Positions 2,919 to 34,072 of a stretch of 64,000 bases of DNA are shown piece after piece; the stretch's first letter is position 1, and the number at the start of each line of letters is the position of its first letter. The translations under genes were made by a program, and so were the position numbers. The DNA is from Patescibacteria group bacterium (GTDB taxonomy: Bacteria; Patescibacteriota; Minisyncoccia; Phycocordibacterales; Phycocordibacteraceae). The notes under the pieces were generated by a model, which made no database searches, was not told the DNA's origin, and saw only the letters and a program-made list of their open reading frames with translations. The stretch covers positions 41,150 to 105,149 of the forward strand of contig JBBTSV010000003.1 in the NCBI GenBank assembly GCA_038064595.1. Reading direction: 5' to 3'.

Positions 2919-4586
2919 TTAACGCGGAAGATCAACAGTGGCGATAACCTCAGAGAGGGAGGTGACGCCAGCAAGTGCTTTGATAATCCCGTCCTGTGCC
3001 ATGGTGGGGTAGCCCTGCTTTGCCGCGACCTTTACAATCTCATTTTCTGGCGGGTTGTCGCGGAGGAACTCAGCAAGCTCATCGTCCATAAAGATCGTCT
3101 CATAGAGCCCAACGCGACCTCTATACCCCGGCTGATCGTCAGTGGAGACCGGCTCCCACACCGTTTCAATCTTTTCGGGGATGAGTGAGCGATCGGTGAG
3201 GGTTGAGAATATTTTTGTTACCAACTCCTTTTCTTCAGGAGTGAGTGGGCGCTCTTTTTTATGCTCCGGGTCGAGCTTGCGTACCAGCCGCTGTGCCATC
3301 GAGACCGTGACGGCCGAGCCAAAAGACTTTGGGTCGACCCCAAGATCGACGAGACGAGGGAAGGTGCCGGCGGCGTTATTGGTGTGGAGCGTCGAGAAGA
3401 CAAAGTGTCCGGTGAGTGCGGCTTGGATGGCAATCCCCGCCGTCTCGCCATCACGAATTTCGCCGACCATGATGATGTCAGGGTCTTGTCGCACAATAGA
3501 CCGGAGCCCTTCGGCGAAGGTGTACTTCTCGCCCGCAACCTGTGTTTGGACAATACCATCAAGGTGATACTCAATCGGATCTTCAATCGTGATGATCTTA
3601 ATCTCTGGGGTGTGTATCTCACGGAGGAAGGAGTAGAGCGTGGTCGTTTTACCGCTCCCCGTTGGACCTGTGGTGAGTAGCATGCCGTTTGGGCGGCGGA
3701 TCTCGGTCTCAAGACGCGCGAGGAGTTTTGCGGGGATGCCGAGGTCTTTATAGGAGACCTTCGTCGCTTCAGGGTCGAGGATACGCATCACGATTGATTC
3801 ACCGTAGTTACCAGGGATGAGGGAGACACGCATCTCGATCTGCTTATCCCCCTTCATCACACTGAAGCGTCCATCCTGGGCCTCTTTGGTGACATTGAGC
3901 TTTACTCCGGCGAGGAGCTTAAAACGTGAGTTGATTTGGCGATAGAGCGCCGGCTCAAAGGAGTCGATAGGGGTCAGCTGACCGTCGATGCGAAGCCGGA
4001 GTGTCGTCGTTGTCTCACTCGGCTCAAAATGGAGGTCGGAGGCGCGTAGCGCAAAGGCTCCCGCCATCACGAGCTCGATGATGCGCGAGACTCTCTCAAG
4101 CGAATTAAGAGCAGTTGCTTTATCAAGCTCCTCTTTCAGTTTTGTTTTACTGGCCCCACCAGCGGTTAGAAGCTCGAGTGTTTCAGTAGTGACGATGAGG
4201 ATCCCGGGCTTGGAGACGGTGGCGAGCGAGAGTTCACGGTACCGTTCGAGCGCCCTCTCGATACTTTTCCTCGATGCGAGCGCGATGGTGGTGGTGTACT
4301 CACGAGCAGCAAGGCTGCTCGTGAGTCTTGTGAGGGCTGGGTTGTTGGGGTTATGGACAGCGAGCGAGAGTTCTTTAGCATTCTTTTCATACGCTACTGC
4401 TTCCGCAGCGCGCGCCTCTTCCTCGGGGATTACGCGGAGCGCATCGCTATCAATCGCTTTGAGCGAGAGATCGACATACGGTATCCCATATTTTTCAGAG
4501 AGGATACGCGCAAGATCCTCCTCCTCGCGTTCGCGGATATGTGCGAGCTTGTCGCCCTCTTTGGTGGTGTCAAACGGTAAATCCAT
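2919..4586 (-). CDS. pilB: type IV pilus / type II secretion assembly ATPase (PilB/GspE family)
   Basis: Walker A GPTGSGKTTTLY and the GspE-like core. The start is chosen at the internal Met MDLPFD (4586) rather than the ORF-track start. Confidence 0.85.
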   Translation of the reverse strand: MDLPFDTTKEGDKLAHIREREEEDLARILSEKYGIPYVDLSLKAIDSDALRVIPEEEARAAEAVAYEKNAKELSLAVHNPNNPALTRLTSSLAAREYTTTIALASRKSIERALERYRELSLATVSKPGILIVTTETLELLTAGGASKTKLKEELDKATALNSLERVSRIIELVMAGAFALRASDLHFEPSETTTTLRLRIDGQLTPIDSFEPALYRQINSRFKLLAGVKLNVTKEAQDGRFSVMKGDKQIEMRVSLIPGNYGESIVMRILDPEATKVSYKDLGIPAKLLARLETEIRRPNGMLLTTGPTGSGKTTTLYSFLREIHTPEIKIITIEDPIEYHLDGIVQTQVAGEKYTFAEGLRSIVRQDPDIIMVGEIRDGETAGIAIQAALTGHFVFSTLHTNNAAGTFPRLVDLGVDPKSFGSAVTVSMAQRLVRKLDPEHKKERPLTPEEKELVTKIFSTLTDRSLIPEKIETVWEPVSTDDQPGYRGRVGLYETIFMDDELAEFLRDNPPENEIVKVAAKQGYPTMAQDGIIKALAGVTSLSEVIATVDLPR

Positions 4587-24820: not shown

Positions 24821-24916
24821 TTTTCATACCGACAAAATCCGAGCCCACGTATGCTCGGATTTTGTTTTTCCACAATTGGTATACGCTACTACCTTGAGCT
24901 AGAGTATACTGGGTGC

Positions 24917-25606
24917 ATGGGGAAGAGTGGTCCAAAGCCGAAAGGGAAAGTGAAAATTACGTGGTCTGCGAACTTTGCCTATGCCCTTGGATTGATCGCC
25001 TCCGATGGCTGTCTTGCTGGAGGACGACATATCGTTCTGGTATCGAAAGACACCGAGCAGCTTGAAAACTTTATGAAGGCTCTCGCGATTACCGTCCCTA
25101 TAGGAAAGACAGCATCCGGTTACAATGGGAATATCGCATCTAAAGTCCAGTTCAGTGATGTCCTGTTCTATAATTTTCTGGAAACAATTGGTCTGATGCC
25201 TCGTAAGTCAAAAATTATTGGAGAGATACAAATTCCAGCTAAGTACTTCTTTGATTTCTTACGCGGCTCTTTTGATGGTGATGGATGCACCTACTCCTAC
25301 TGGGATCCGCGCTGGAAGTCGAGCTTTATGTTCTACACTACCTTCGTCTCCGCGAGCTACAAACACATCGAGTGGCTCCGCGACGAGATTCATGCGCAGT
25401 TAGGTATTCGTGGACACCTGACGGGGGATGGAAAAAGAGTTATCTTTCAGCTCAAATACGCCAAGGCAGACTCACTGAAACTATTGCGTAAAATGTATTA
25501 CTCAAAAAAGGTGCTCTGCCTTTCTCGCAAACGATTGAAAATTGAGAAGATGTTAGGTATAGTGGGTGAGTTGCTAGTGAAAAAGAGCAAGAAATTGACA
25601 AGATAA
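24917..25606 (+). CDS. LAGLIDADG-family homing endonuclease (double motif)
   Basis: LGLIASDGCL and LRGSFDGDGCT motifs. AT-rich. ATG at 24917 after a TATACT box. The stop codon ends 2 nt before tRNA-Leu(GAG). Confidence 0.65.
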   Translation: MGKSGPKPKGKVKITWSANFAYALGLIASDGCLAGGRHIVLVSKDTEQLENFMKALAITVPIGKTASGYNGNIASKVQFSDVLFYNFLETIGLMPRKSKIIGEIQIPAKYFFDFLRGSFDGDGCTYSYWDPRWKSSFMFYTTFVSASYKHIEWLRDEIHAQLGIRGHLTGDGKRVIFQLKYAKADSLKLLRKMYYSKKVLCLSRKRLKIEKMLGIVGELLVKKSKKLTR

Positions 25607-25607
25607 T

Positions 25608-25689
25608 GCCCAGGTGGAGAAATTGGTAGACTTACCGCCTTGAGGTGGCGGCGCCGTAAGGCATGGAGGTTCGAATCCTCTCCTGGGCA
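25608..25689 (+). tRNA. tRNA-Leu (anticodon GAG)
   Basis: Class II tRNA with anticodon stem CCGCC/GGCGG and loop TTGAGGT. Followed by a hairpin terminator at 25749-25770. Confidence 0.8.
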
Positions 25690-25820
25690 CACAAACACAA
25701 AGCCAAAAAATTCCCCAAACAAGGAATCCTTTACAAAGCATCAACATCGGCCACCAGGCAACTGGTGGCCCGACCTCTTTATTTTTATAAAAAAGAGCAG
25801 CAGTACGGTACACTTTACCC

Positions 25821-26351
25821 ATGCTCTACACCCGCAAAGGAGATACCGGGACGACGACCGCATTTGGCTGTAATCAGCAGCGGATCTCTAAGTCGTCAGA
25901 ACTTCCCGAGGCGCTCGGCTCTCTCGACGAGCTCAATGCGTTCATTGGCTTCGTGAAGATGAAGAGCAGCGAGCCGCGGATCGCCACCACGCTGCGCGAT
26001 GTGCAAGAAAAACTTTTCATCATCCAGGCCGAGACGGCGGGAGCGCAGAAGAAGACAGAGGAGGGGAGTGTGCTCGCTCTCGAGGAGCTGGTGAATGCGA
26101 TTGAGAAAGAGATTCCGCCACTGAAGGGCTTCTCGATAGCGGGCGGGACCGAGCTCTCAGCGATGCTCGACGTGGCGCGAACGCTCGCGCGCCGCGCTGA
26201 GCGCCGCCTCACGGCGGTGAACGAGCTCAAGATCCGCGAGCTCTCTCCGGAGACGCTTGCGTATATGAACCGCCTCTCCTCGCTCCTCTTCGCGCTCGCG
26301 CGGCTCGCCAACCACCTCGCGGGCGTCCCCGAGGAGAACCCGAAATATTAA
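25821..26351 (+). CDS. PduO-type ATP:cob(I)alamin adenosyltransferase
   Basis: MLYTRKGDTGTT N-terminal signature. Confidence 0.8.
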   Translation: MLYTRKGDTGTTTAFGCNQQRISKSSELPEALGSLDELNAFIGFVKMKSSEPRIATTLRDVQEKLFIIQAETAGAQKKTEEGSVLALEELVNAIEKEIPPLKGFSIAGGTELSAMLDVARTLARRAERRLTAVNELKIRELSPETLAYMNRLSSLLFALARLANHLAGVPEENPKY

Positions 26352-26396: not shown

Positions 26397-28487
26397 TTGC
26401 TCATGAATCGCTCCGAGAGCTATGCCGCCGTTAAGCCCTCTAAACCTAACGATCTTGAGGCTAAACCAGGTATCGTTGACGACCAGGAACAGATTCTTGC
26501 AGGATTTTCTCCCGAAGAGCGAAAGATCATCCGCGAAAGAATGCGTCTCCTCTCGCTCATTCCAAATCACATTGGTAAAGACTTCGAGATGGCAGTCGAG
26601 CTGAATACATCGGGCGAAGGATGGCACTGGAACTTCGCTATCAACCACGTCCGTGTTGACCCGAAAGATCTGCTCGAAAAACCCCTCGACTGGTGCCGCC
26701 AAACAATGGTGCATGAGGGTGGTCATCGACGCGTGTCACGTGTTGATTTCATTCCGAAAGATATTTGGGAACAGCCGGGTTTTTCTTCGATGATGAACGC
26801 GATCGAGGATCCACGCATGGAGAACTTCATTTCTGAAGCGTATCCTCCATATCGCAAGCTCCAGAAGACAGCGTACGAGCACGATCTTGAGTCAGAAAAA
26901 CGCATGAAAGAATCCGCCGATGGAAAGCTTGGGCGACAGCCACGCTTCATGCAAGCTGGATTTGAATATATCAAGCAATGGTTCAAGCAGACCCAAGGTA
27001 AGCCATTCGAGCTCTCCGCAGATTTGCCCGACGACGTACGAGTGGTCGTTAATAAAACTCTCAAGGCAGCCGAGGATTCGTGGCTCCGTTATCCGACCAG
27101 AAACGAGGCTGACAAAAGCGAGGAGGTCATTAAAGCGTATGCGGAAAAATCATACGAAATCAATCGTGATCGAGTGTGGCCAGACTTTAAGAAGCTTGTC
27201 GAACAAGATATTAAGGATCAAGAAATTCCGGAGTTCCTTAAAGACCTTATGCAAGGAAAGGGCGAAGGAAAACCAGAGGCAGGACAAGGAGAAGGACAGA
27301 GTGAAGGCCTTTCGCCACAGGACATCCAAGATATTAAAGATGCAGTTAAAGCGGCACTTGGCGAAAAGGGTGAAGGCAAGCCCATACCTCCTGGCGCGTT
27401 GTCGGAAGAACTTAAACAGAAAATCCAAGCCGCGTTTGACGCGCTCCCCGAGGATAAAAAGCGCGAGATTATGGAAGCGGCACGCGCTGAAATAAAGGAA
27501 TTGGCAGACGAGTTCGCCGCTCAATTTGAGGGTGAATATATTAAAGCCGGAGAACCACAGGGCGAACCAGAATCGGGGACGCTCGAATCCGAAGGTCGTG
27601 CATGGAGCGAGGCGGAGCGAGCGGCTGATGACACGCGACACGAGATGCGGCGGCGCATGGAAGAGTCACTTGGGCGTAGCGAAGGCGATCCATATCGAGA
27701 GGCACTTACAGAAATGGCCTCATACATCGATGCTCTCACTGGTGATCTGCGTGATGTGTTGGTGAAGCGCAAAATGACCACGACGGAGGCAGGGTATCGT
27801 TCAGGAAGGCGCTGGAATATTCGTACCCGCATTAAAGAGCGTATTGCGGATATCCCGCTTATCAAAACCCAGAGTCGAGAACAGCCAGAATCATCTAGCG
27901 AAGAAACCGACTACGCGGTCCTACTTCAAATCGATCTCTCCGGTTCGATGAGCCGTGGTAACAAAATCGAAGAGGCGTTTAAAGCGATTGTGCTATTGAG
28001 CGAAACATTGAACAATCTCAATATCCACTTCGAGATTGATGGCTTCCAAGACCTCCTTCTCGAATTCAAACGTTTCGAGGAACAGCTCGATGAATCGATG
28101 CGGCTTAAACTGAATCAATTGTTGCTTGAAGTTGAAAATGAAAATCCAGATGGACACAATAACGCGGGTGATAACGACGATGGTGCCTGCCTACGAGAAG
28201 CATCACAGCATCTGGCTAACCAAACAGCACGGGAGAAGATTTTGATCGTCCTCTCCGATGGCCAACCCGCCATGGATTCAGGGCGCAAGAGTCAGGGACA
28301 GCTCGATCGAGAACTCAAGGCGGTTATCCGTGAGATTCGTGAGAATACTGACCAAAAACTCATCGGCATAGGCATCAATTCGAGTGCTGTTTCTAGCTAT
28401 TACGAAAACAATCTCCCGAATGTCGATGCGAAAGAGCTTGCCGAAACCCTCGGTGAGTTACTGCGTAGCGTGATTGAACGCAACTGA
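26397..28487 (+). CDS. VWA-domain protein with N-terminal putative zinc-metallopeptidase motif (MoxR partner-type)
   Basis: HExxH (MVHEGGH) near the N-terminus, a long acidic low-complexity middle region, and a C-terminal VWA MIDAS (DLSGSM ... LSDGQP). Confidence 0.7.
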   Translation: MLMNRSESYAAVKPSKPNDLEAKPGIVDDQEQILAGFSPEERKIIRERMRLLSLIPNHIGKDFEMAVELNTSGEGWHWNFAINHVRVDPKDLLEKPLDWCRQTMVHEGGHRRVSRVDFIPKDIWEQPGFSSMMNAIEDPRMENFISEAYPPYRKLQKTAYEHDLESEKRMKESADGKLGRQPRFMQAGFEYIKQWFKQTQGKPFELSADLPDDVRVVVNKTLKAAEDSWLRYPTRNEADKSEEVIKAYAEKSYEINRDRVWPDFKKLVEQDIKDQEIPEFLKDLMQGKGEGKPEAGQGEGQSEGLSPQDIQDIKDAVKAALGEKGEGKPIPPGALSEELKQKIQAAFDALPEDKKREIMEAARAEIKELADEFAAQFEGEYIKAGEPQGEPESGTLESEGRAWSEAERAADDTRHEMRRRMEESLGRSEGDPYREALTEMASYIDALTGDLRDVLVKRKMTTTEAGYRSGRRWNIRTRIKERIADIPLIKTQSREQPESSSEETDYAVLLQIDLSGSMSRGNKIEEAFKAIVLLSETLNNLNIHFEIDGFQDLLLEFKRFEEQLDESMRLKLNQLLLEVENENPDGHNNAGDNDDGACLREASQHLANQTAREKILIVLSDGQPAMDSGRKSQGQLDRELKAVIREIRENTDQKLIGIGINSSAVSSYYENNLPNVDAKELAETLGELLRSVIERN

Positions 28488-28509
28488 CACACCCTGATAT
28501 ACTTCTCTC

Positions 28510-29502
28510 ATGCCCGAAGGCCCTCCCAAAACGGCACCCAAGATACTCGAACAACAGCTCATAGACTTGAGAGAGATTCAGCGCGCACTCGCCGAGGCGA
28601 GAGAGGCCGGGGATGTGGCGGCCGCAGAGGCACTTATGGAGCAGCATCGAGATGCAGTCGAGCCGATGGAAGCCTCAACATCTCCAGGAGAGTCGCCAGA
28701 AGGTGCCACATTAGCAGATGCCGAACGCATCCTCGGCAAAGAATCGATACTTGGTCCCAAAGCTGTGGAGCAGGTGTTCGGAGTCAAACTAGACCGCATA
28801 CCAGCCATCCCGTTTTCACAGCAGGAATTGCAACGCGCCAAAGAGCTCGGTCAACAACTCATTTTCTACACCGACGCTCTTTCACCCACTACGCTAGGAG
28901 AAAAAGTCAAACCACTTACTCTCGCGAATTTGAAACAGAAATTCACAAAAGCCCACGACGACGGCAAAGTTTTCTACGAACAAGATTGGTACAAGAATGA
29001 AGATTTCTTCAAAAAAGAGAAACCGCGCGTTGGTTGGCGACTCACCTCAAAAGATCTACTCCCAGAGTCAACCTCGAAAAACTATCTCGAACAGACCGAT
29101 GTGCTGATCGAGTATTTACAAAAACAAGTCTTCAAGGGAGCAAAACTTCCGAAACCATATGAAGACGCGATCGCAGAGTGGAAGCGTGAACGAGAAAAGA
29201 TCGAGCCACTGGCGACAAGCTCGACAGACACCGAATGGAAATGTGGTTCCCAAATGCTTACCGATCTTGCGATCACTAAGCTCACACGAGAATTACCAAT
29301 CGAAGTCATGTATCGATTTATCCTTAACGATCAGATAAACAAAGATAAACCCCTCCCCTCAGCCTACACATGGACAGCGAGTCGTTCGTCTGGCGGCTAC
29401 CTCGTGCATGTCGGCGGCTTCGGCGACGCGGGTGCGCTTGTGAGCAGGGGCGACCCCGGCGCTCGCCACGACAATCTCGGCGTCTCGTTCTCCCGCAGTT
29501 GA
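28510..29502 (+). CDS. DGR target protein 1 (variable repeat at its C-terminus; paralogous to the C-terminal 265 aa of target 2)
   Basis: The last 41 codons form VR1. Its C-terminal motif ...NLGVSFSRS resembles a CLec-fold DGR variable region. Confidence 0.75.
   Translation: MPEGPPKTAPKILEQQLIDLREIQRALAEAREAGDVAAAEALMEQHRDAVEPMEASTSPGESPEGATLADAERILGKESILGPKAVEQVFGVKLDRIPAIPFSQQELQRAKELGQQLIFYTDALSPTTLGEKVKPLTLANLKQKFTKAHDDGKVFYEQDWYKNEDFFKKEKPRVGWRLTSKDLLPESTSKNYLEQTDVLIEYLQKQVFKGAKLPKPYEDAIAEWKREREKIEPLATSSTDTEWKCGSQMLTDLAITKLTRELPIEVMYRFILNDQINKDKPLPSAYTWTASRSSGGYLVHVGGFGDAGALVSRGDPGARHDNLGVSFSRS
29378..29499 (+). repeat. DGR variable repeat VR1
   Basis: 122-nt alignment to the template repeat gives 19 mismatches, all at template adenines, and 0 of 91 non-A positions differ. 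Confidence 0.9.
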
Positions 29503-29536
29503 TTTTTGAATAGTGAAGAATGAATCTTTGAATCCT

Positions 29537-29559
29537 CTCCGACCCGTTTAGGGTCGGAG
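29537..29559 (+). other. GC-rich hairpin downstream of VR1 (DGR homing-associated stem-loop / terminator)
   Basis: CTCCGACCC-GTTTA-GGGTCGGAG lies 35 nt after VR1. An analogous hairpin follows VR2. Confidence 0.5.
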
Positions 29560-29593
29560 ACTCTCGAAAAATTATTCTGATATACTTCACCAT

Positions 29594-30001
29594 ATGACAC
29601 AAACCTCAGTTGCCCCATCTGCCCTCATAAGCCAATCTATAGGCCTTCCGAATTTGGTCATTGTTGAAAGCTCTAAAACTCTTGAGGGGGCCGAGGCACG
29701 CGTCCGACAAGATCTAGCGGGCTTTATGAAAGCGTCTGACGCCACCTCGGTGCTTGACCACTTAGAGAAAGGCATAAGCGTCCTCTATATAGAACGAGGT
29801 GAGAAGCTCGATCCTCGCGTAGAAACAATTGTGACCACCTATGCGGCTGGTATGGCGAGCTTCGCTTCACCCAGCGGTCTTGTATCTGCCAGCTTCGATC
29901 CGATGCACACAGCCCTCACCATCGTTATTTCCCGTGACGCTCTTGAAAAGAGCTACCCACAGCTTCTCACTTACGCCGGTGCTGTCACTTCTATTTCATA
30001 A
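29594..30001 (+). CDS. hypothetical protein
   Basis: ORF between the two DGR targets with no recognisable motifs. Confidence 0.35.
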   Translation: MTQTSVAPSALISQSIGLPNLVIVESSKTLEGAEARVRQDLAGFMKASDATSVLDHLEKGISVLYIERGEKLDPRVETIVTTYAAGMASFASPSGLVSASFDPMHTALTIVISRDALEKSYPQLLTYAGAVTSIS

Positions 30002-30006
30002 ATCAT

Positions 30007-32073
30007 ATGTCTGAACGCCGACCAACTGCAAAGAGAGAGAAACCAGGACGCGAACCGTTCATCGTAGAGAAGGACGAGTCGGTGTCGTACCTTGGAGTCG
30101 AAGTGCCTAAAGGCGAAGGCGGTCCACTCGTCCCAGGTCGTCAGGAATCAGAAAATTATTTTTATACGGAAGAGGATTACCTGTTGCGCCGAGAGATGGC
30201 GACGTCAATCGCGCTCAATAAACCAATTCTCTTTGAAGGCGGCACCGGCATAGGCAAAACTTCAGCCGTTGCCGCGATGTGTGCCGAGCTCAACCTCAAT
30301 TTCTGCAAGGTGTCCTTCGCGCGCGATATGGCGATTGAGGACGTAATCGGCGGTAAGACTATTGTTAAAGAGGGTGACGCAGAAGTCGTGAAATGGTACG
30401 ACGGCAACTTGATGGTCGCGATTCGCCACGGCGGTATCGCCCTTCTCGACGAATACAACTTTCAAGGCAGCAAAGTCGGCTCGCGTGTGAACCCAGTCAT
30501 TGATGCAATTTTGAACGGGAGAAAAGAAATATCGCTGCCCGAAAATGACAACGAGCGTGTGATGGTGCATCCCAACTTCCGCCTTGTCGCTGCGCAGAAT
30601 CCTCCAGGCACCGAAGAGGGCCAAGAATTTACCGGACGTGAACAGATGTCCGCCGAGACATTCGGACGATGGACGTTTAATAAACTTCCCCTTGAAATGA
30701 GTCGAGACATGCGCGACAAACGTCTCGCAGGCATGATGGGAGAATCTGTTGATATCAAATTGCCTCCTGAAGCCTTCCGCAAGCTCGGCGAGGGCGTTCC
30801 GTTCCACGAACTCAAAGACATTCCTGGAATGACGCATTGGCGTCGTGCTGCCCTCGATGTGCTTGACCAGCTCAAAGCCAAGTCTACCGGTGCAGATCGC
30901 GATATGGCCAAGACACAGCGCCAGCGCCTCTACTTCAACCCGCGCCTTGAGCAAGGACTTCTGAACTACGTCTCTCGCTTCTATCGGGGAGACGTAAACC
31001 AGGTATGGGGCGAAGCATTCGAGCACCTTATCGTCGGCATGTACAAAGATGAGGCTGATCGCCAGGCGGTGCGTGAATTGCTCACGCTAAACGCCTACGA
31101 GCCACAGACCGACACGAAACGCAGGCCACTCGGCGATGCTGAGCGAGCTGAACAAGAAGGGGCAGAAGAAACATGGGCAAAAGTTGCTGAATTTGAAGAC
31201 AAACTTGCTACTAAGATTTCTGCCCTCGAACAGGAGCTTGGCGTTTCATCTGGTGAGAGTAAAGAAATATCGCTTGCCGACGCAGAAAAGATTCTTGGAA
31301 AGGAGTCCGTGCTCGGAGCGAAAGATGTGGAACAAGTGTTCGGAGTCAAACTAGATCGCATACCAGCCATCCCATTTTCACAGCAGGAATTGCAACGCGC
31401 TAAAGAACTCGGTCAGCAACTCATTCTCCAAGTTGATTCAATGACTCACAAGGGGGGACTGATGTCTCGTGAGAAGAGTGCTCCGCTCACGCTTGAGAAT
31501 CTGAAACAGAAATTCACAAAGTCCCACGACGATGGCAAAGTTTTCTACGAACAAGATTGGTACAAGAATGAAGATTTCTTCAAAAAAGAGAAGCCGCGCA
31601 CCGGCTGGAGGCTCACATCAAAAGACCTCGTTCCTGACTCCACGAGTAAGAGCTATCTCGAGCAAACTGATGTACTCGTCGAGCATTTGGAGAAACAGAT
31701 TTTCAAAGGTGTCGAGGTACCAAAACAATATAAGGATGCCATTGCCGAATTCAAGCGCAAGAGAGCAGAGATTGAACCGCTCGCAAAAAGTGGAACAGAT
31801 GCGGAATGGAAAAAAGGTTCCCAGATGCTCGCTGATCTCGCGATTACCAAACTTGCCCGCGAACTGCCGGTCGAGGCCATGTACCGCCTCATTTTGAACG
31901 ACCAAACTCGAAAGGATAAACCGCTCCCCTTAACCTACACATGGACAGCGTGTCGTGCGTCTGGCGGCAGCCTCGTGGATGTCGGCTGCTTCGGCGACGC
32001 GGGTGCGGCTGTGGACGGGGGCAGCCCCGACGTTCGCTACGACCGTCTCGGCGTCTCGTTCTCCCGCAGTTGA
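30007..32073 (+). CDS. MoxR-like AAA+ ATPase fused to a DGR-diversified C-terminal domain (DGR target 2)
   Basis: Walker A EGGTGIGKTS and Walker B ALLDEYN of the AAA_5/MoxR type. The C-terminal ~265 aa are paralogous to target 1 and end in VR2. Confidence 0.8.
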   Translation: MSERRPTAKREKPGREPFIVEKDESVSYLGVEVPKGEGGPLVPGRQESENYFYTEEDYLLRREMATSIALNKPILFEGGTGIGKTSAVAAMCAELNLNFCKVSFARDMAIEDVIGGKTIVKEGDAEVVKWYDGNLMVAIRHGGIALLDEYNFQGSKVGSRVNPVIDAILNGRKEISLPENDNERVMVHPNFRLVAAQNPPGTEEGQEFTGREQMSAETFGRWTFNKLPLEMSRDMRDKRLAGMMGESVDIKLPPEAFRKLGEGVPFHELKDIPGMTHWRRAALDVLDQLKAKSTGADRDMAKTQRQRLYFNPRLEQGLLNYVSRFYRGDVNQVWGEAFEHLIVGMYKDEADRQAVRELLTLNAYEPQTDTKRRPLGDAERAEQEGAEETWAKVAEFEDKLATKISALEQELGVSSGESKEISLADAEKILGKESVLGAKDVEQVFGVKLDRIPAIPFSQQELQRAKELGQQLILQVDSMTHKGGLMSREKSAPLTLENLKQKFTKSHDDGKVFYEQDWYKNEDFFKKEKPRTGWRLTSKDLVPDSTSKSYLEQTDVLVEHLEKQIFKGVEVPKQYKDAIAEFKRKRAEIEPLAKSGTDAEWKKGSQMLADLAITKLARELPVEAMYRLILNDQTRKDKPLPLTYTWTACRASGGSLVDVGCFGDAGAAVDGGSPDVRYDRLGVSFSRS
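31949..32070 (+). repeat. DGR variable repeat VR2
   Basis: 22 mismatches to the template repeat, all at template adenines. VR2 also differs from VR1. Confidence 0.9.
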
Positions 32074-32108
32074 TTTTTGAATACCGAATAATGAAGTCTT
32101 GAGTCCAT

Positions 32109-32129
32109 GCTGACCCGTTCAGGGTCAGC
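32109..32129 (+). other. hairpin downstream of VR2
   Basis: GCTGACCC-GTTC-AGGGTCAGC, followed by a T-run. Confidence 0.5.
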
Positions 32130-32333
32130 ATCCGCGCAAATTTTTTGCTAGTATGGACATACGGCTAATGAAGCGTCATTTACGGATGTCGCTCGCCGAA
32201 AAACACTGCTTGTCCGCCATTAGCGCAAACGGTTGAAGTAATGGGACAGTGCGCACATCCTATAACCCGAAACAGCTCACGCCTTTCGCGCATGCGAAAC
32301 GCTGGGGCGAAGCCACGGACGATGGCGGACAAA

Positions 32334-32455
32334 ACGAGTCGTACGTCTGACGGCAACCTCGTGAATGTCGGCAACTTCGACGACACGGGTGCGAATGTGA
32401 ACAGGAACAACCCCGACAATCGCAACGACAATCTCGGCGTCTCGTTCTCCCGAAG
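32334..32455 (+). repeat. DGR template repeat (TR)
   Basis: 31 adenines, AAC/AAT-rich (7 AAC). It is the invariant copy relative to VR1 and VR2 and sits in a degenerate remnant of the target C-terminus, upstream of the RT. Confidence 0.9.
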
Positions 32456-32459
32456 TGTT

Positions 32460-32487
32460 TCCAACACCACTCAGATGAGTGGTGTTG
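32460..32487 (+). other. 13-bp-stem hairpin immediately after TR
   Basis: CCAACACCACTCA-GAT-GAGTGGTGTTGG followed by ATTTTT. It may be a DGR spacer RNA structure or a terminator. Confidence 0.4.
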
Positions 32488-32851
32488 GATTTTTCGTATA
32501 CTTGATCCATCCGCCGACCATGCTACCGATCTCGATTATTTTCTCAGAGAGCGAGGCGAATCCGGCATCGTTGATGCTCCCCGTTTTATACGCAAGGCGC
32601 AGATGGGTCGTGAGCATCTTGAGTGTTACGTCCGCTTTATTAAGTATCAAAAGCCGAGACGCTCCCTGCTTGCTTTGTGCAAGGTAGAGAAGCTCGATGA
32701 TTTCGAGTATGGTATTTTCTATTCTCACACCGAGCGTGTACCGTTCCGGTTTTTTGAATTTCAAGACTCGCTTGTGCGCAGCAAGGTACAATTGGCTCAC
32801 TTTATGGAAAACGATCGGCTCGGTGTACGTCTCGACAGTGGATTGGGTCAT
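32471..32851 (-). CDS. avd: Avd-like accessory variability determinant (four-helix-bundle protein)
   Basis: 126 aa. The C-terminus IIEIGSMVGGWIKYTKN and the helix pattern match Bordetella bAvd (IAEVGRILGSWIARVNRK). It is encoded antisense between TR and RT. Confidence 0.65.
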   Translation of the reverse strand: MTQSTVETYTEPIVFHKVSQLYLAAHKRVLKFKKPERYTLGVRIENTILEIIELLYLAQSKQGASRLLILNKADVTLKMLTTHLRLAYKTGSINDAGFASLSEKIIEIGSMVGGWIKYTKNPTPLI

Positions 32852-33889
32852 AAGGATTTATTTAAGCTCATAATCTCCAAGGAGAACATTTTCGCCGCGT
32901 GGCGGGAGTTCCAGAAGTGGAAGATGAGCAAACAGGACGTGCTCGCATTTTCAGAACATTTTGAAGAGCATCTCTTGCAATTGCACTACGACCTTGCAAA
33001 TGGGCGATACCGACATGGACCCTATATACGCTTCCTCATTCAGGATCCGAAACAGCGTAGTATCGCCAAAGCAAGCGTCCGCGATCGCGTCCTGCATCAC
33101 GCCATCTGTCGCGTGATCACGCCGAGCTTTGATAATGCATTTGTATTTGATACGTACTCGAGCCGCAAGACCAAGGGCGTCCATCGAGCGATCGAACGGC
33201 TCGTACGTTTGGCGTGGCGACTATCCCGAAACAACACACAGACCGTCTGGATGCTTAAGTGCGATATACGAAAGTTTTTCGAGAGTGTTGGCCATGACAG
33301 ATTGCTTGAGTTATGTACGAGACGCATTGATGACAGTCGTGTTATGGCCCTACTCAAGAATATTCTCGGTAGTTTTGAAGCGGAACCTAGAACTAGAAAG
33401 AGTATCCCTCTCGGCAACCTCACTTCACAGCTCTTTGCTAACATCTATCTCGACCGATTTGATCAGTATGTGAAGCGCGAATTGCGTTTCAAGAATTATC
33501 TCCGCTATACCGACGACTTCATACTGCTCTCCACTGATCGCGAAGAACTTGAACGCACCTTACCGCTCATACGGGATTTTCTCTTACGTGACCTCAATCT
33601 CGATTTGCACCCAACAAAAGTCACATTTCGGAAGTGGCATCAAGGCGTCGACTTTCTTGGCTATGTGCATTTTCCGCATCACCGAGTTATCCGTACGAAG
33701 ACAAAGAAACGTATGATTCGAAAACTGCGCAATCGAAAAGAAACTTTTGAAGCTAGAGACATCGACGAAGATGAGTTGCGCCAAACGGTAGCATCGTATC
33801 TCGGTGTTCTCTCGCACTCTCAAAACAGAGGATTGGCGAGACGCATTCGTCGTGATTTTCTCCCTAAGGGTAAGGCTCTTACCGAGTAA
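32804..33889 (+). CDS. DGR reverse transcriptase
   Basis: Bordetella Brt-like motifs: KENIFAAWREF, GPYIRFLIQDPKQRSI, the DGR-specific LGNLTSQLFANIY and YTDDFILL. Start set at the ATG at 32804; the upstream part of the ORF is unsupported. Confidence 0.9.
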   Translation: MENDRLGVRLDSGLGHKDLFKLIISKENIFAAWREFQKWKMSKQDVLAFSEHFEEHLLQLHYDLANGRYRHGPYIRFLIQDPKQRSIAKASVRDRVLHHAICRVITPSFDNAFVFDTYSSRKTKGVHRAIERLVRLAWRLSRNNTQTVWMLKCDIRKFFESVGHDRLLELCTRRIDDSRVMALLKNILGSFEAEPRTRKSIPLGNLTSQLFANIYLDRFDQYVKRELRFKNYLRYTDDFILLSTDREELERTLPLIRDFLLRDLNLDLHPTKVTFRKWHQGVDFLGYVHFPHHRVIRTKTKKRMIRKLRNRKETFEARDIDEDELRQTVASYLGVLSHSQNRGLARRIRRDFLPKGKALTE

Positions 33890-33971: not shown

Positions 33972-34045
33972 GGTGGTCGTAGCTCAATTGGTAGAGCATC
34001 TGCTTGTGGAGCAGAAGGTTGTGGGATCGTGACCCATCGACCACC
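33972..34045 (+). tRNA. tRNA-His (anticodon GTG) with G-1
   Basis: G-1 plus acceptor GTGGTCG/CGACCAC, anticodon loop TTGTGGA, C73. Confidence 0.75.
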
Positions 34046-34072
34046 CAAAAAAGATTGTGCTACCATCTCCAC

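Follow-up and report, generated by a model that had tools for sequence, protein, structure and literature searches.

How does a diversity-generating retroelement (DGR) prime reverse transcription of its template repeat (TR) when a reversed avd gene fills the space between the TR and the reverse transcriptase (RT) gene? The question is raised by a DGR in a Patescibacteria genome (candidate phyla radiation [CPR]) recovered from Hainich groundwater. We analyzed a 64,000-nt stretch of this genome (contig JBBTSV010000003.1, positions 41,150-105,149 of the forward strand), referred to below as the window, whose positions serve as coordinates throughout. An initial annotation, made from the sequence alone, had described a complete DGR with two adenine-mutagenized variable repeats (VRs), and this overall interpretation held: the TR and VRs, RT, Avd, C-terminal VR module, and hairpins are all present and intact. 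Thousands of comparable CPR DGRs have been catalogued, and as a DGR the element is an ordinary member of a well-described kind, one more well-preserved example in the large CPR clade. That it is an intact chromosomal CPR DGR of the published B3 architecture, with priming from an RNA segment upstream of the TR as part of its mechanism, is in our judgment highly probable. We also lean, cautiously, toward a more specific proposal: the RNA would be a circular permutation of the cDNA synthesis RNA of Bordetella phage BPP-1, here and in at least 38 related B3 CPR loci, and would control reverse transcription.

The DGR signature lies in three repeats of equal length:

32335-32456, plus strand: TR, 122 nt, with 31 A and 91 non-A positions
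29378-29499, plus strand: VR1, with 19 differences from the TR, all at template A; encodes the last 40 residues of target 1, with the stop codon directly after
31949-32070, plus strand: VR2, with 22 differences from the TR, all at template A; encodes the last 40 residues of target 2

In a base-by-base alignment, none of the 91 non-A template positions differed in either VR (0/91 in VR1 and 0/91 in VR2). The two VRs differ from each other at 18 sites, which again all correspond to template A; taken together, they vary at 26 template-A sites. If mismatches were placed at random, the chance of every one falling on an A would be ∼1.7e-14 for VR1 and ∼2e-17 for VR2. The length, base composition, and mismatch counts given in the initial annotation were all reproduced (19/19 and 22/22 mismatches at template A when tabulated by base), but its TR coordinates, 32334-32455, were one base off: at that position the TR shows 96-97 mismatches to the VRs, and a shift by one base brings these to 19 and 22. 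Template adenines occupy the first codon position 15 times, the second 15 times, and the third once. Mutagenesis at adenines would vary 20 codons, with stop codons impossible, to give ∼4.5e17 protein variants. No third VR copy was found on either strand within the window. A 148-aa open reading frame (ORF; 32241-32687, plus strand) crosses the TR in the VR frame and continues into the avd antisense region; it has no Pfam match, its phmmer matches arise only via the TR-encoded peptide, and we do not consider it a gene but a by-product of the TR.

The 262 nt between the target 2 stop codon and the TR are conserved like coding sequence in close relatives. This interval, together with the 3' end of the TR and its flank, contains the following predicted elements:

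32146-32154, plus strand: extended -10-like promoter, TGCTAGTAT, read by eye, with a predicted transcription start near 32161
32161-32334, plus strand: structured leader of 174 nt, abutting the TR 5' end; proposed equivalent of the BPP-1 spacer (Sp)
32162-32198, plus strand: leader stem-loop SL1 (RNAalifold)
32202-32207, plus strand: leader primer strand AACACU, pairing with 32454-32459
32208-32209, plus strand: unpaired GC between the primer and stop strands
32210-32221, plus strand: 5' strand of the stop duplex, 12 bp with 32321-32332
32223-32254, plus strand: leader stem-loop SL2 (RNAalifold)
32255-32274, plus strand: conserved single-stranded linker
32275-32308, plus strand: variable leader stem-loop SL3 (RNAalifold)
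32321-32332, plus strand: 3' strand of the stop duplex, ending 2 nt before the TR
32454-32459, plus strand: AGUGUU at the TR 3' end, 3' strand of the proposed template:primer helix, pairing with AACACU at 32202-32207
32460-32494, plus strand: stem-loop right after the TR (stem-loop to 32489), 13 bp with an AGAU loop, then UUUUU; overlaps the avd stop codon

To compare these elements across relatives, we used 80 related loci from species-representative genomes (45-52% RT identity, mostly CPR-labeled) and 24 metagenomic loci (at most 85% identity). RNAalifold, applied to the leader alone and, with eight sequences, to a "mini RNA" of leader, TR ends, and 3' flank, predicts the primer helix, the stop helix, SL1 to SL3, and the 3' stem-loop. 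The same helices appear in the minimum free energy fold of the full 334-nt RNA (-121.3 kcal/mol, z score of -3.83). Within the eight-sequence alignment, 94.2% of cells pair, versus 34-50% when partners are slid, and compensatory changes occur in 34 pairs, versus 6-10 in slid controls; none of 500 shuffles reached the observed value. A covariance model built from nine sequences with one iteration recognized leaders in 38 loci. Every hit shares the strand of its TR and stops where the TR begins, and the window contains one. Across the 36 distinct leaders, 94.5% of cells pair (37-52% when slid), with 296 double-change cells (44-70 when slid). In the 12-bp stop helix of these 36 sequences, 98.8% of cells are paired and 11 of the 12 pairs covary. 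The primer helix covaries as well, being GAUUUCU:AGAAAUC in locus L009 and GUUUCU:AGGAAC in L050. The promoter motif TGnTAnnnT stands at the equal position in five relatives (L082, L084, L085, L098, and L088), and a sixth (L087) has TGT-TATAAT; a simple sigma-70 scan did not call the promoter at 32146-32154, which is without a -35 match. A search of the window with Rfam returned only tRNAs at gathering score and nothing at an E value of ≤1 in 32090-32520.

An alignment-free scan pointed the same way. Here, we recorded the longest uninterrupted helix that the 25 nt abutting the TR can form with a zone located 45-200 nt upstream of it. A helix of at least 10 bp was present in 75% of 64 non-redundant loci, compared to 1.8% in cross-locus pairings (p = 1.5e-26). 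As a control, BPP-1 was put through the same scan, which recovered its known downstream Sp63-70 strand. When the 12 nt before the upstream stop strand were compared with the TR 3' end, helices of at least 6 bp were found in 43% of own-locus and 14% of cross-locus comparisons (p = 1.7e-9).

The BPP-1 cDNA synthesis RNA consists of 20 nt of avd, the TR, and a 140-nt downstream Sp. Sp3-33 forms a stem-loop that binds Avd; the 3' part of the TR is paired with Sp50-56, whose last nucleotide, the priming A56, is followed by G57 and C58; Sp59-70 (12 nt) and avd369-379 just upstream of the TR form the "cPRT Stop"; and past Sp70 come a small stem-loop, two adenines, a "thumb ring," and a bRT-binding stem-loop (Handa et al., bioRxiv 10.1101/2023.10.23.563531). 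We located these elements on the BPP-1 sequence, and they agree with the published numbering. The window RNA shares with BPP-1 the succession of primer strand, G, C, 12-nt stop strand, and stem-loops, the last set apart in the window by a conserved single-stranded stretch, as well as a stem-loop right after the TR. In BPP-1, however, the Sp elements lie downstream of the TR, whereas in the window the equivalents of the primer and stop strands are located upstream of it. A circular permutation fits the B3 layout, in which the reversed avd fills the space between TR and RT. In the permuted RNA, the protein-binding stem-loops would lie in the upstream leader along with the primer and stop strands; only an Avd-binding-like stem-loop would remain downstream, and it may double as a terminator facing the convergent avd.

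In the mechanism that we propose, an RNA of ∼334 nt (∼32161-32494), comprising the 174-nt leader, the TR, and a terminal stem-loop, would be transcribed from the extended -10 promoter. The 12-bp helix 32210-32221/32321-32332 would close the leader against the TR 5' end, as the counterpart of the phage cPRT Stop duplex. AACACU, two nucleotides (GC) upstream of the stop helix, would pair with AGUGUU at the TR 3' end, as the counterpart of the phage template:primer helix. The RT-Avd complex would then prime cDNA in cis near U32207, begin copying at about TR position 118-119, and continue to the stop helix, with misincorporation at adenines. The cDNA would finally replace VR1 or VR2; the A-free 3' segment with its terminal CAGT and the hairpin in the DNA, 37 nt past the VR, would direct it there. 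The predicted first templated base is TR position 119 or 118, and the last varying site of the VRs (TR 96) is just upstream of it; a cDNA start downstream of the last varying site agrees with the phage, whose transfer boundary lies upstream of the cDNA start.

Several points weigh against this reading of the RNA. The transcript ends, the priming site, and the cDNA are all inferred. The predicted priming base, U32207, pairs with TR A120, whereas BPP-1 uses A56. The covariance-model alignment was fitted to the structure, so the pairing counts taken from it are inflated. A second leader subclass (L024, L027, L032, L033, L053, L060, L062, L064, and others) has a gap of 4-6 nt between primer and stop strand, instead of 2 nt. 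And because the U-tract after the post-TR stem-loop also encodes Lys/Asn of the Avd C terminus, this stem-loop may be no terminator, although a scan tool calls it one. In the second subclass, ACUUG is followed by GUG..., the stop strand lies ∼92 nt upstream of the TR, and the TRs end in CGCAACU or CGAAACU; the covariance model missed this subclass. Most of 65 related loci have a hairpin at this position, but their stems are unrelated in sequence. Hairpins beyond the avd stop codon are often without a separate T-run and are usually symmetric A-tract/T-tract hairpins. The post-TR stem-loop may serve in Avd binding, in termination of convergent transcripts, or in both; on account of the coding T-run and of these hairpins we tentatively rank Avd binding above the terminator reading.

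The leader could alternatively be a mere 5' untranslated region, a promoter-proximal stabilizer, or an unrelated small RNA, with the functional Sp located downstream of the TR and antisense to avd. In favor of this alternative, the BPP-1 priming elements are all downstream of the TR, a stem-loop follows the TR in the window, and a survey found, in many DGRs including those of CPR, Avd-binding stem-loops and putative stop duplexes near the TR (Handa et al., bioRxiv 10.1101/2023.10.23.563531). This survey covered the 40 nt before the TR and the 100 nt after it, so a leader extending ∼130-170 nt upstream would have been invisible to it. The distribution of helices argues the other way: in an equal-sized zone downstream of the TR, a partner of at least 10 bp for the TR-abutting strand occurs in 4.7% of loci, against 75% upstream. 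Moreover, covariation is strong in the upstream helices and is also seen between the primer strand and the TR 3' end, and the leader stays with the TR even where the targets lie on the other strand (L088). The third codon positions of the avd GGW(I/L)K motif vary freely by eye, with no overlapping RNA constraint seen. Given these observations, we regard this alternative as unlikely.

The upstream Sp-like RNA is the part of this locus worth pursuing, as a property of the whole CPR B3 group and not of one element. Full-text literature searches, whose coverage is incomplete so that an earlier description is possible, returned no description of an upstream Sp-like arrangement. The BPP-1 elements are essential for priming, processivity, and termination, and their proposed counterparts here stand on the other side of the template. 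An upstream leader would explain how reversed-avd DGRs, 90% of those in CPR, work without a TR-RT spacer. If the proposal is true, cis-priming would take place across a different RNA topology, with a predicted priming site near U32207, and the covariance model would locate TRs independently of any VR.

In gene order the element matches a published type. The B3 architecture, TR-(avd)-RT with avd reversed, accounts for 90% of CPR DGRs (Wu et al. 2018, NAR, PMC5758913), and the window has the TR at 32335-32456 (plus strand), avd at 32471-32851 (minus strand), and the RT gene extending to 33889 (plus strand). The same layout was found in ∼70 related loci. A minus-strand avd directly beside the RT gene is present in ∼95 related loci, and an A-biased TR was detected in 73 of 105 loci, almost always on the plus strand just before the avd 3' end. 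An antisense avd as a novelty was ruled out by the published B3 architecture (PMC5758913). Patescibacteria DGRs fall in the cellular clade (DGR clade 2), and their targets are typically without recognizable domains (Roux et al. 2021, PMC8144416). CPR B3 DGRs and the window element are alike in gene order and strands, Patescibacteria host, chromosomal location, multiple targets, and the lack of a Pfam domain over the VR. Nothing essential differs between the two; the upstream leader belongs to the whole group and is undescribed in those papers.

With BPP-1 the element shares adenine-specific TR/VR differences, a homologous RT (E value of 2.6e-44) with IGxxxSQ and YxDD motifs, Avd, a C-type-lectin-fold target with a C-terminal VR (in the window, according to a model), and a GC-rich hairpin after the VR. 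The differences are that BPP-1 resides in a phage and the window element on a cellular chromosome; that avd lies on the opposite strand in the window; that the post-VR hairpin has a 5-nt GTTYA loop at 37 nt in the window, compared to a 4-nt GRNA loop at 4-34 nt in the phage consensus; and that the window has two apparently cytoplasmic targets, whereas the BPP-1 target is a tail fiber.

The two genes that would carry out mutagenic homing are arranged head to head:

32843-33889, plus strand: DGR RT, starting at TTG 32843 (which aligns with bRT Met1) or ATG 32804; contains IPLGNLTSQLF and YTDD
32471-32851, minus strand: avd, 126 aa, antisense to the TR and RT

The RT carries both motifs named in the initial annotation, LGNLTSQLF and YTDD, and the Brt-like assignment made there is borne out by structure-database searches. 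Its best solved relative is the Bordetella phage bRT (PDB 8ub7, E value of 2.6e-44). In the same PDB search, group II intron and retron RTs scored ∼1e-21 (group II intron RT, 5e-22), more than 20 orders of magnitude behind bRT; on this comparison the RT belongs with the phage enzyme. The protein also matches Pfam RVT_1, and residues N192, T194, S195, and Q196 of its motif, which follows the DGR pattern (I/L)GxxxSQ, are invariant among 20 relatives. Avd scores 54.1 bits against Pfam bAvd (cut-off of 40) and 63.6 bits against NCBIfam DivGenRetAVD, under the cut-off of 80; its sequence gave no real match in the PDB. An Avd-like gene between TR and RT had been noted at the outset and is indeed there, but its position on the minus strand had gone unremarked. 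The avd start (ATG 32851, minus strand) and the RT start (TTG 32843 or ATG 32804) overlap head to head, and the promoter of each gene must therefore sit within the coding sequence of the other. Ahead of the avd ATG, and overlapping it, is a mini-ORF of 7 codons with a good GGAG.

An intact element may nevertheless have fallen silent. The initial annotation held that both targets appear to be actively diversified; VR1 and VR2 do differ from each other, but active diversification was not shown in this lineage. VR1, VR2, and TR are the same in the metagenome-assembled genome and in the independent Hainich H41 assemblies L001, L107, and L110 (the last of 10.7 kb), and likewise in L106 from the same aquifer well. 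Exact-protein look-ups and cluster members yielded only H41 contigs with identical VRs and no same-strain VR variants. The sole polymorphism seen in the cassette affects target 1 but not its VR and has the appearance of a paralogue-conversion patch: positions 28794-28962 (∼170 nt) carry target 2 sequence in L110 and L107, and the rest of the 10.7-kb locus is identical. This patch could be gene conversion between the targets or assembly cross-talk. These observations would suit a genuine DGR that has become silent or very slow, with VR/TR differences left by earlier homing and VRs that are in effect fixed alleles of this population. Yet the H41 assemblies are low-coverage (2-7x) consensus sequences from one well, in which minority VR variants are invisible. 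The RT motifs, Avd, and structured RNA are intact. The absence of any non-A mismatch over 2 x 91 positions argues for recent homing, since drift after silencing would have added some differences in these 182 positions. Finally, a close relative shows VR-restricted variation within one assembly: loci L088 and L089, which have the architecture of the window element and an RT 70% identical to its own, are 99.69% identical along 12,064 bp, with 37 differences, of which the two VRs account for 31. Taking these data together, we consider a silent element improbable and retain the reading of an intact DGR. In the same relative, six of eight adjacent bases at L088 positions 3275-3282 differ from L089 and are not adenine specific; this cluster lies just past a GAATGCCGC-TTTC-GCGGCATTC hairpin, ∼110 nt downstream of the VR of the short target.

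One could also take the three 122-nt copies for ordinary repeats, paralogous or recombining, with an A bias due to chance, or assign the RT to a group II intron or retron unrelated to them. This notion is refuted by the A-only mismatch counts and the conserved DGR architecture and deserves practically no credence. The targets are indeed paralogues (76-82% nucleotide identity across the C-terminal half) that apparently exchange sequence, and the best NCBIfam model for the RT is a group II intron RT/maturase (145 bits, under the cut-off of 300). But the probability of all mismatches falling at A is between 1e-14 and 1e-17; no gene was found to contain the TR, the sole ORF across it being without a Pfam match; the bRT match is far better; the RT stands beside Avd in a conserved DGR architecture; and no group II intron RNA was detected by Rfam.

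At the target sites, the following elements adjoin the VRs, those at the VR 3' ends resembling the initiation of mutagenic homing (IMH) element:

29476-29499, plus strand: IMH-like 3' end of VR1, an A-free GC-rich 20-mer, CTCGGCGTCTCGTTCTCCCG, then CAGT (AAGT in the TR)
32047-32070, plus strand: IMH-like 3' end of VR2, with the same 20-mer and CAGT as VR1
29537-29559, plus strand: hairpin/cruciform after VR1, CTCCGACCC-GTTTA-GGGTCGGAG, 37 nt past VR1
32108-32130, plus strand: hairpin/cruciform after VR2, TGCTGACCC-GTTCA-GGGTCAGCA, 37 nt past VR2

The 20-mer occurs three times in the window. Position 119 of the TR is A, and the corresponding base is C in 9/9 VRs from the window and five close relative loci; the IMH-like segment reads CCCGCAGT in all nine VRs and CCCGAAGT in the TR. 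This comparison of sequences indicates that CAGT versus AAGT is a fixed difference of the IMH/IMH* type and no product of mutagenesis. With BPP-1 as the model, we infer an IMH role for the A-free 3' segment. The hairpins, placed at about 35 nt in the initial annotation, were found 37 nt downstream of both VRs. Each has a 9-bp GC-rich stem; relatives show compensatory changes in the stem and a constant GTTYA loop. Both hallmarks of a DGR target site, an IMH distinct from the IMH* of the TR and a downstream GC-rich inverted repeat, are present at the level of sequence.

What the element diversifies is encoded in a small gene cluster upstream of the TR:

28510-29502, plus strand: target gene 1, 330 aa; residues 69-330 form a C-type-lectin/FGE-like variable module
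30007-32073, plus strand: target gene 2, 688 aa; N-terminal MoxR/midasin-like AAA+ ATPase, with residues 424-688 corresponding to the variable module of target 1
26397-28487, plus strand: CobT-like vWA protein, 696 aa; N-terminal HEGGH (HExxH) and C-terminal vWA/MIDAS; carries no VR
29594-30001, plus strand: conserved small ORF, 135 aa, between the vWA and AAA-target genes

The 262-aa C-terminal variable module has no sequence match in Pfam or to any PDB chain. An AlphaFold model based on 45 homologues was obtained with a pLDDT of 96.6 and a pTM of 0.94. In the comparison with C-type-lectin/FGE-fold variable domains of DGRs that the initial annotation had proposed, the model is closest to the DGR variable protein TvpA of Treponema denticola (PDB 2y3c) and to other FGE/C-type-lectin folds; a Foldseek search with it returned nothing significant. 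The window module is only 12-15% identical in sequence to TvpA, Mtd (1yu0), and TaqVP (5vf4), and differs from them by a long helical insertion, with helices across residues 124-209 of the model. As in other DGRs, the VR lies at the 3' end of the target gene, a position observed directly, within what the model predicts to be a C-type-lectin fold.

The N terminus of target 2, named "MoxR family ATPase" by NCBI, matches Pfam AAA_5 (1e-11), midasin AAA modules in the PDB (2.2e-49), and CbbQ/NorQ/CobS (∼1e-10). CPR DGR targets with midasin/P-loop NTPase domains are known as UVR4, or category g1 (Wu et al., PMC5758913), and share an AAA/midasin-like target N terminus with the window; this comparison concerns the AAA domain of target 2 only (midasin, 2.2e-49). 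The AAA-fused target was ruled out as a novelty on account of these published targets (PMC5758913). Judged by eye, neither target has a signal peptide or membrane segment, which together with the AAA+ fusion suggests that both are cytoplasmic, in agreement with remarks on CPR targets by Roux et al. (PMC8144416). The CobT-like protein matches Pfam CobT_C (7.8e-18) and, weakly, VWA, as well as CobT in the PDB (7.9e-13), and is likely the partner of the AAA+ target. Directly upstream of its gene is one for a PduO-type cobalamin adenosyltransferase (25821-26351), whose place beside CobT-like and CobS-like genes may be coincidence or a hint at the origin of the pair. The 135-aa ORF has no match in Pfam, NCBIfam, or PADLOC. 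The module of vWA gene, 135-aa ORF, and AAA-target gene recurs in loci L088/L089, L005/L093, and L084.

With a C-lectin-fold target joined to a MoxR/midasin-like ATPase and a vWA protein encoded nearby, the cluster recalls the vWA-MoxR (VMAP) ternary conflict systems of cyanobacteria and gammaproteobacteria, in which FGS domains are diversified by DGRs (Kaur et al. 2020, eLife, PMC7159879). Both combine a MoxR-type AAA+ protein, a vWA protein, and a DGR-diversified FGE/C-lectin domain in one cluster. The fusions differ, however: the variable domain is attached to the AAA+ ATPase in the window and to the vWA protein in VMAP systems. The window vWA protein additionally carries HExxH, and its host is a reduced-genome CPR organism, from a group omitted from the multicellularity test of Kaur et al. 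(PMC7159879). A third component of the VMAP type was not identified in the cluster, in which the 135-aa ORF matches nothing and none of the non-RT proteins has a PADLOC match; the cluster differs from a VMAP ternary system. Apparently cytoplasmic targets would fit intracellular recognition or conflict better than surface adhesion, and an AAA+/vWA pair acting on a ligand of the variable surface is a reasonable guess, no more. PADLOC found no defense-system match for the vWA, AAA, small ORF, target, and Avd proteins.

The genomic setting is that of a bacterial chromosome. Flanking genes are housekeeping genes, encoding UppS, a pseudouridine synthase, ribosomal protein L19, ThyX, and serine hydroxymethyltransferase, with scattered tRNAs, and the element is therefore chromosomal. 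Identical or near-identical short contigs were found from well H41, and an NCBI Patescibacteria protein is 100% identical to the RT. Among 185,579 species representatives searched, a set from which the source genome is absent, the best RT match was 52%; the nearest relatives (70-85% RT identity) are unbinned metagenome contigs. The cassette lies between tRNA-Leu(gag) at 25608-25690 and tRNA-His(gtg) at 33973-34046, and its GC content is 0.50-0.52, compared to 0.53-0.59 for most of the surrounding window. Between the L19 gene and tRNA-Leu, a 251-aa ORF (24851-25606) has a weak match to LAGLIDADG_3 (E value of 2e-4, 22.0 bits, cut-off of 22.5) and, judging from this similarity, could be a degenerate homing endonuclease.

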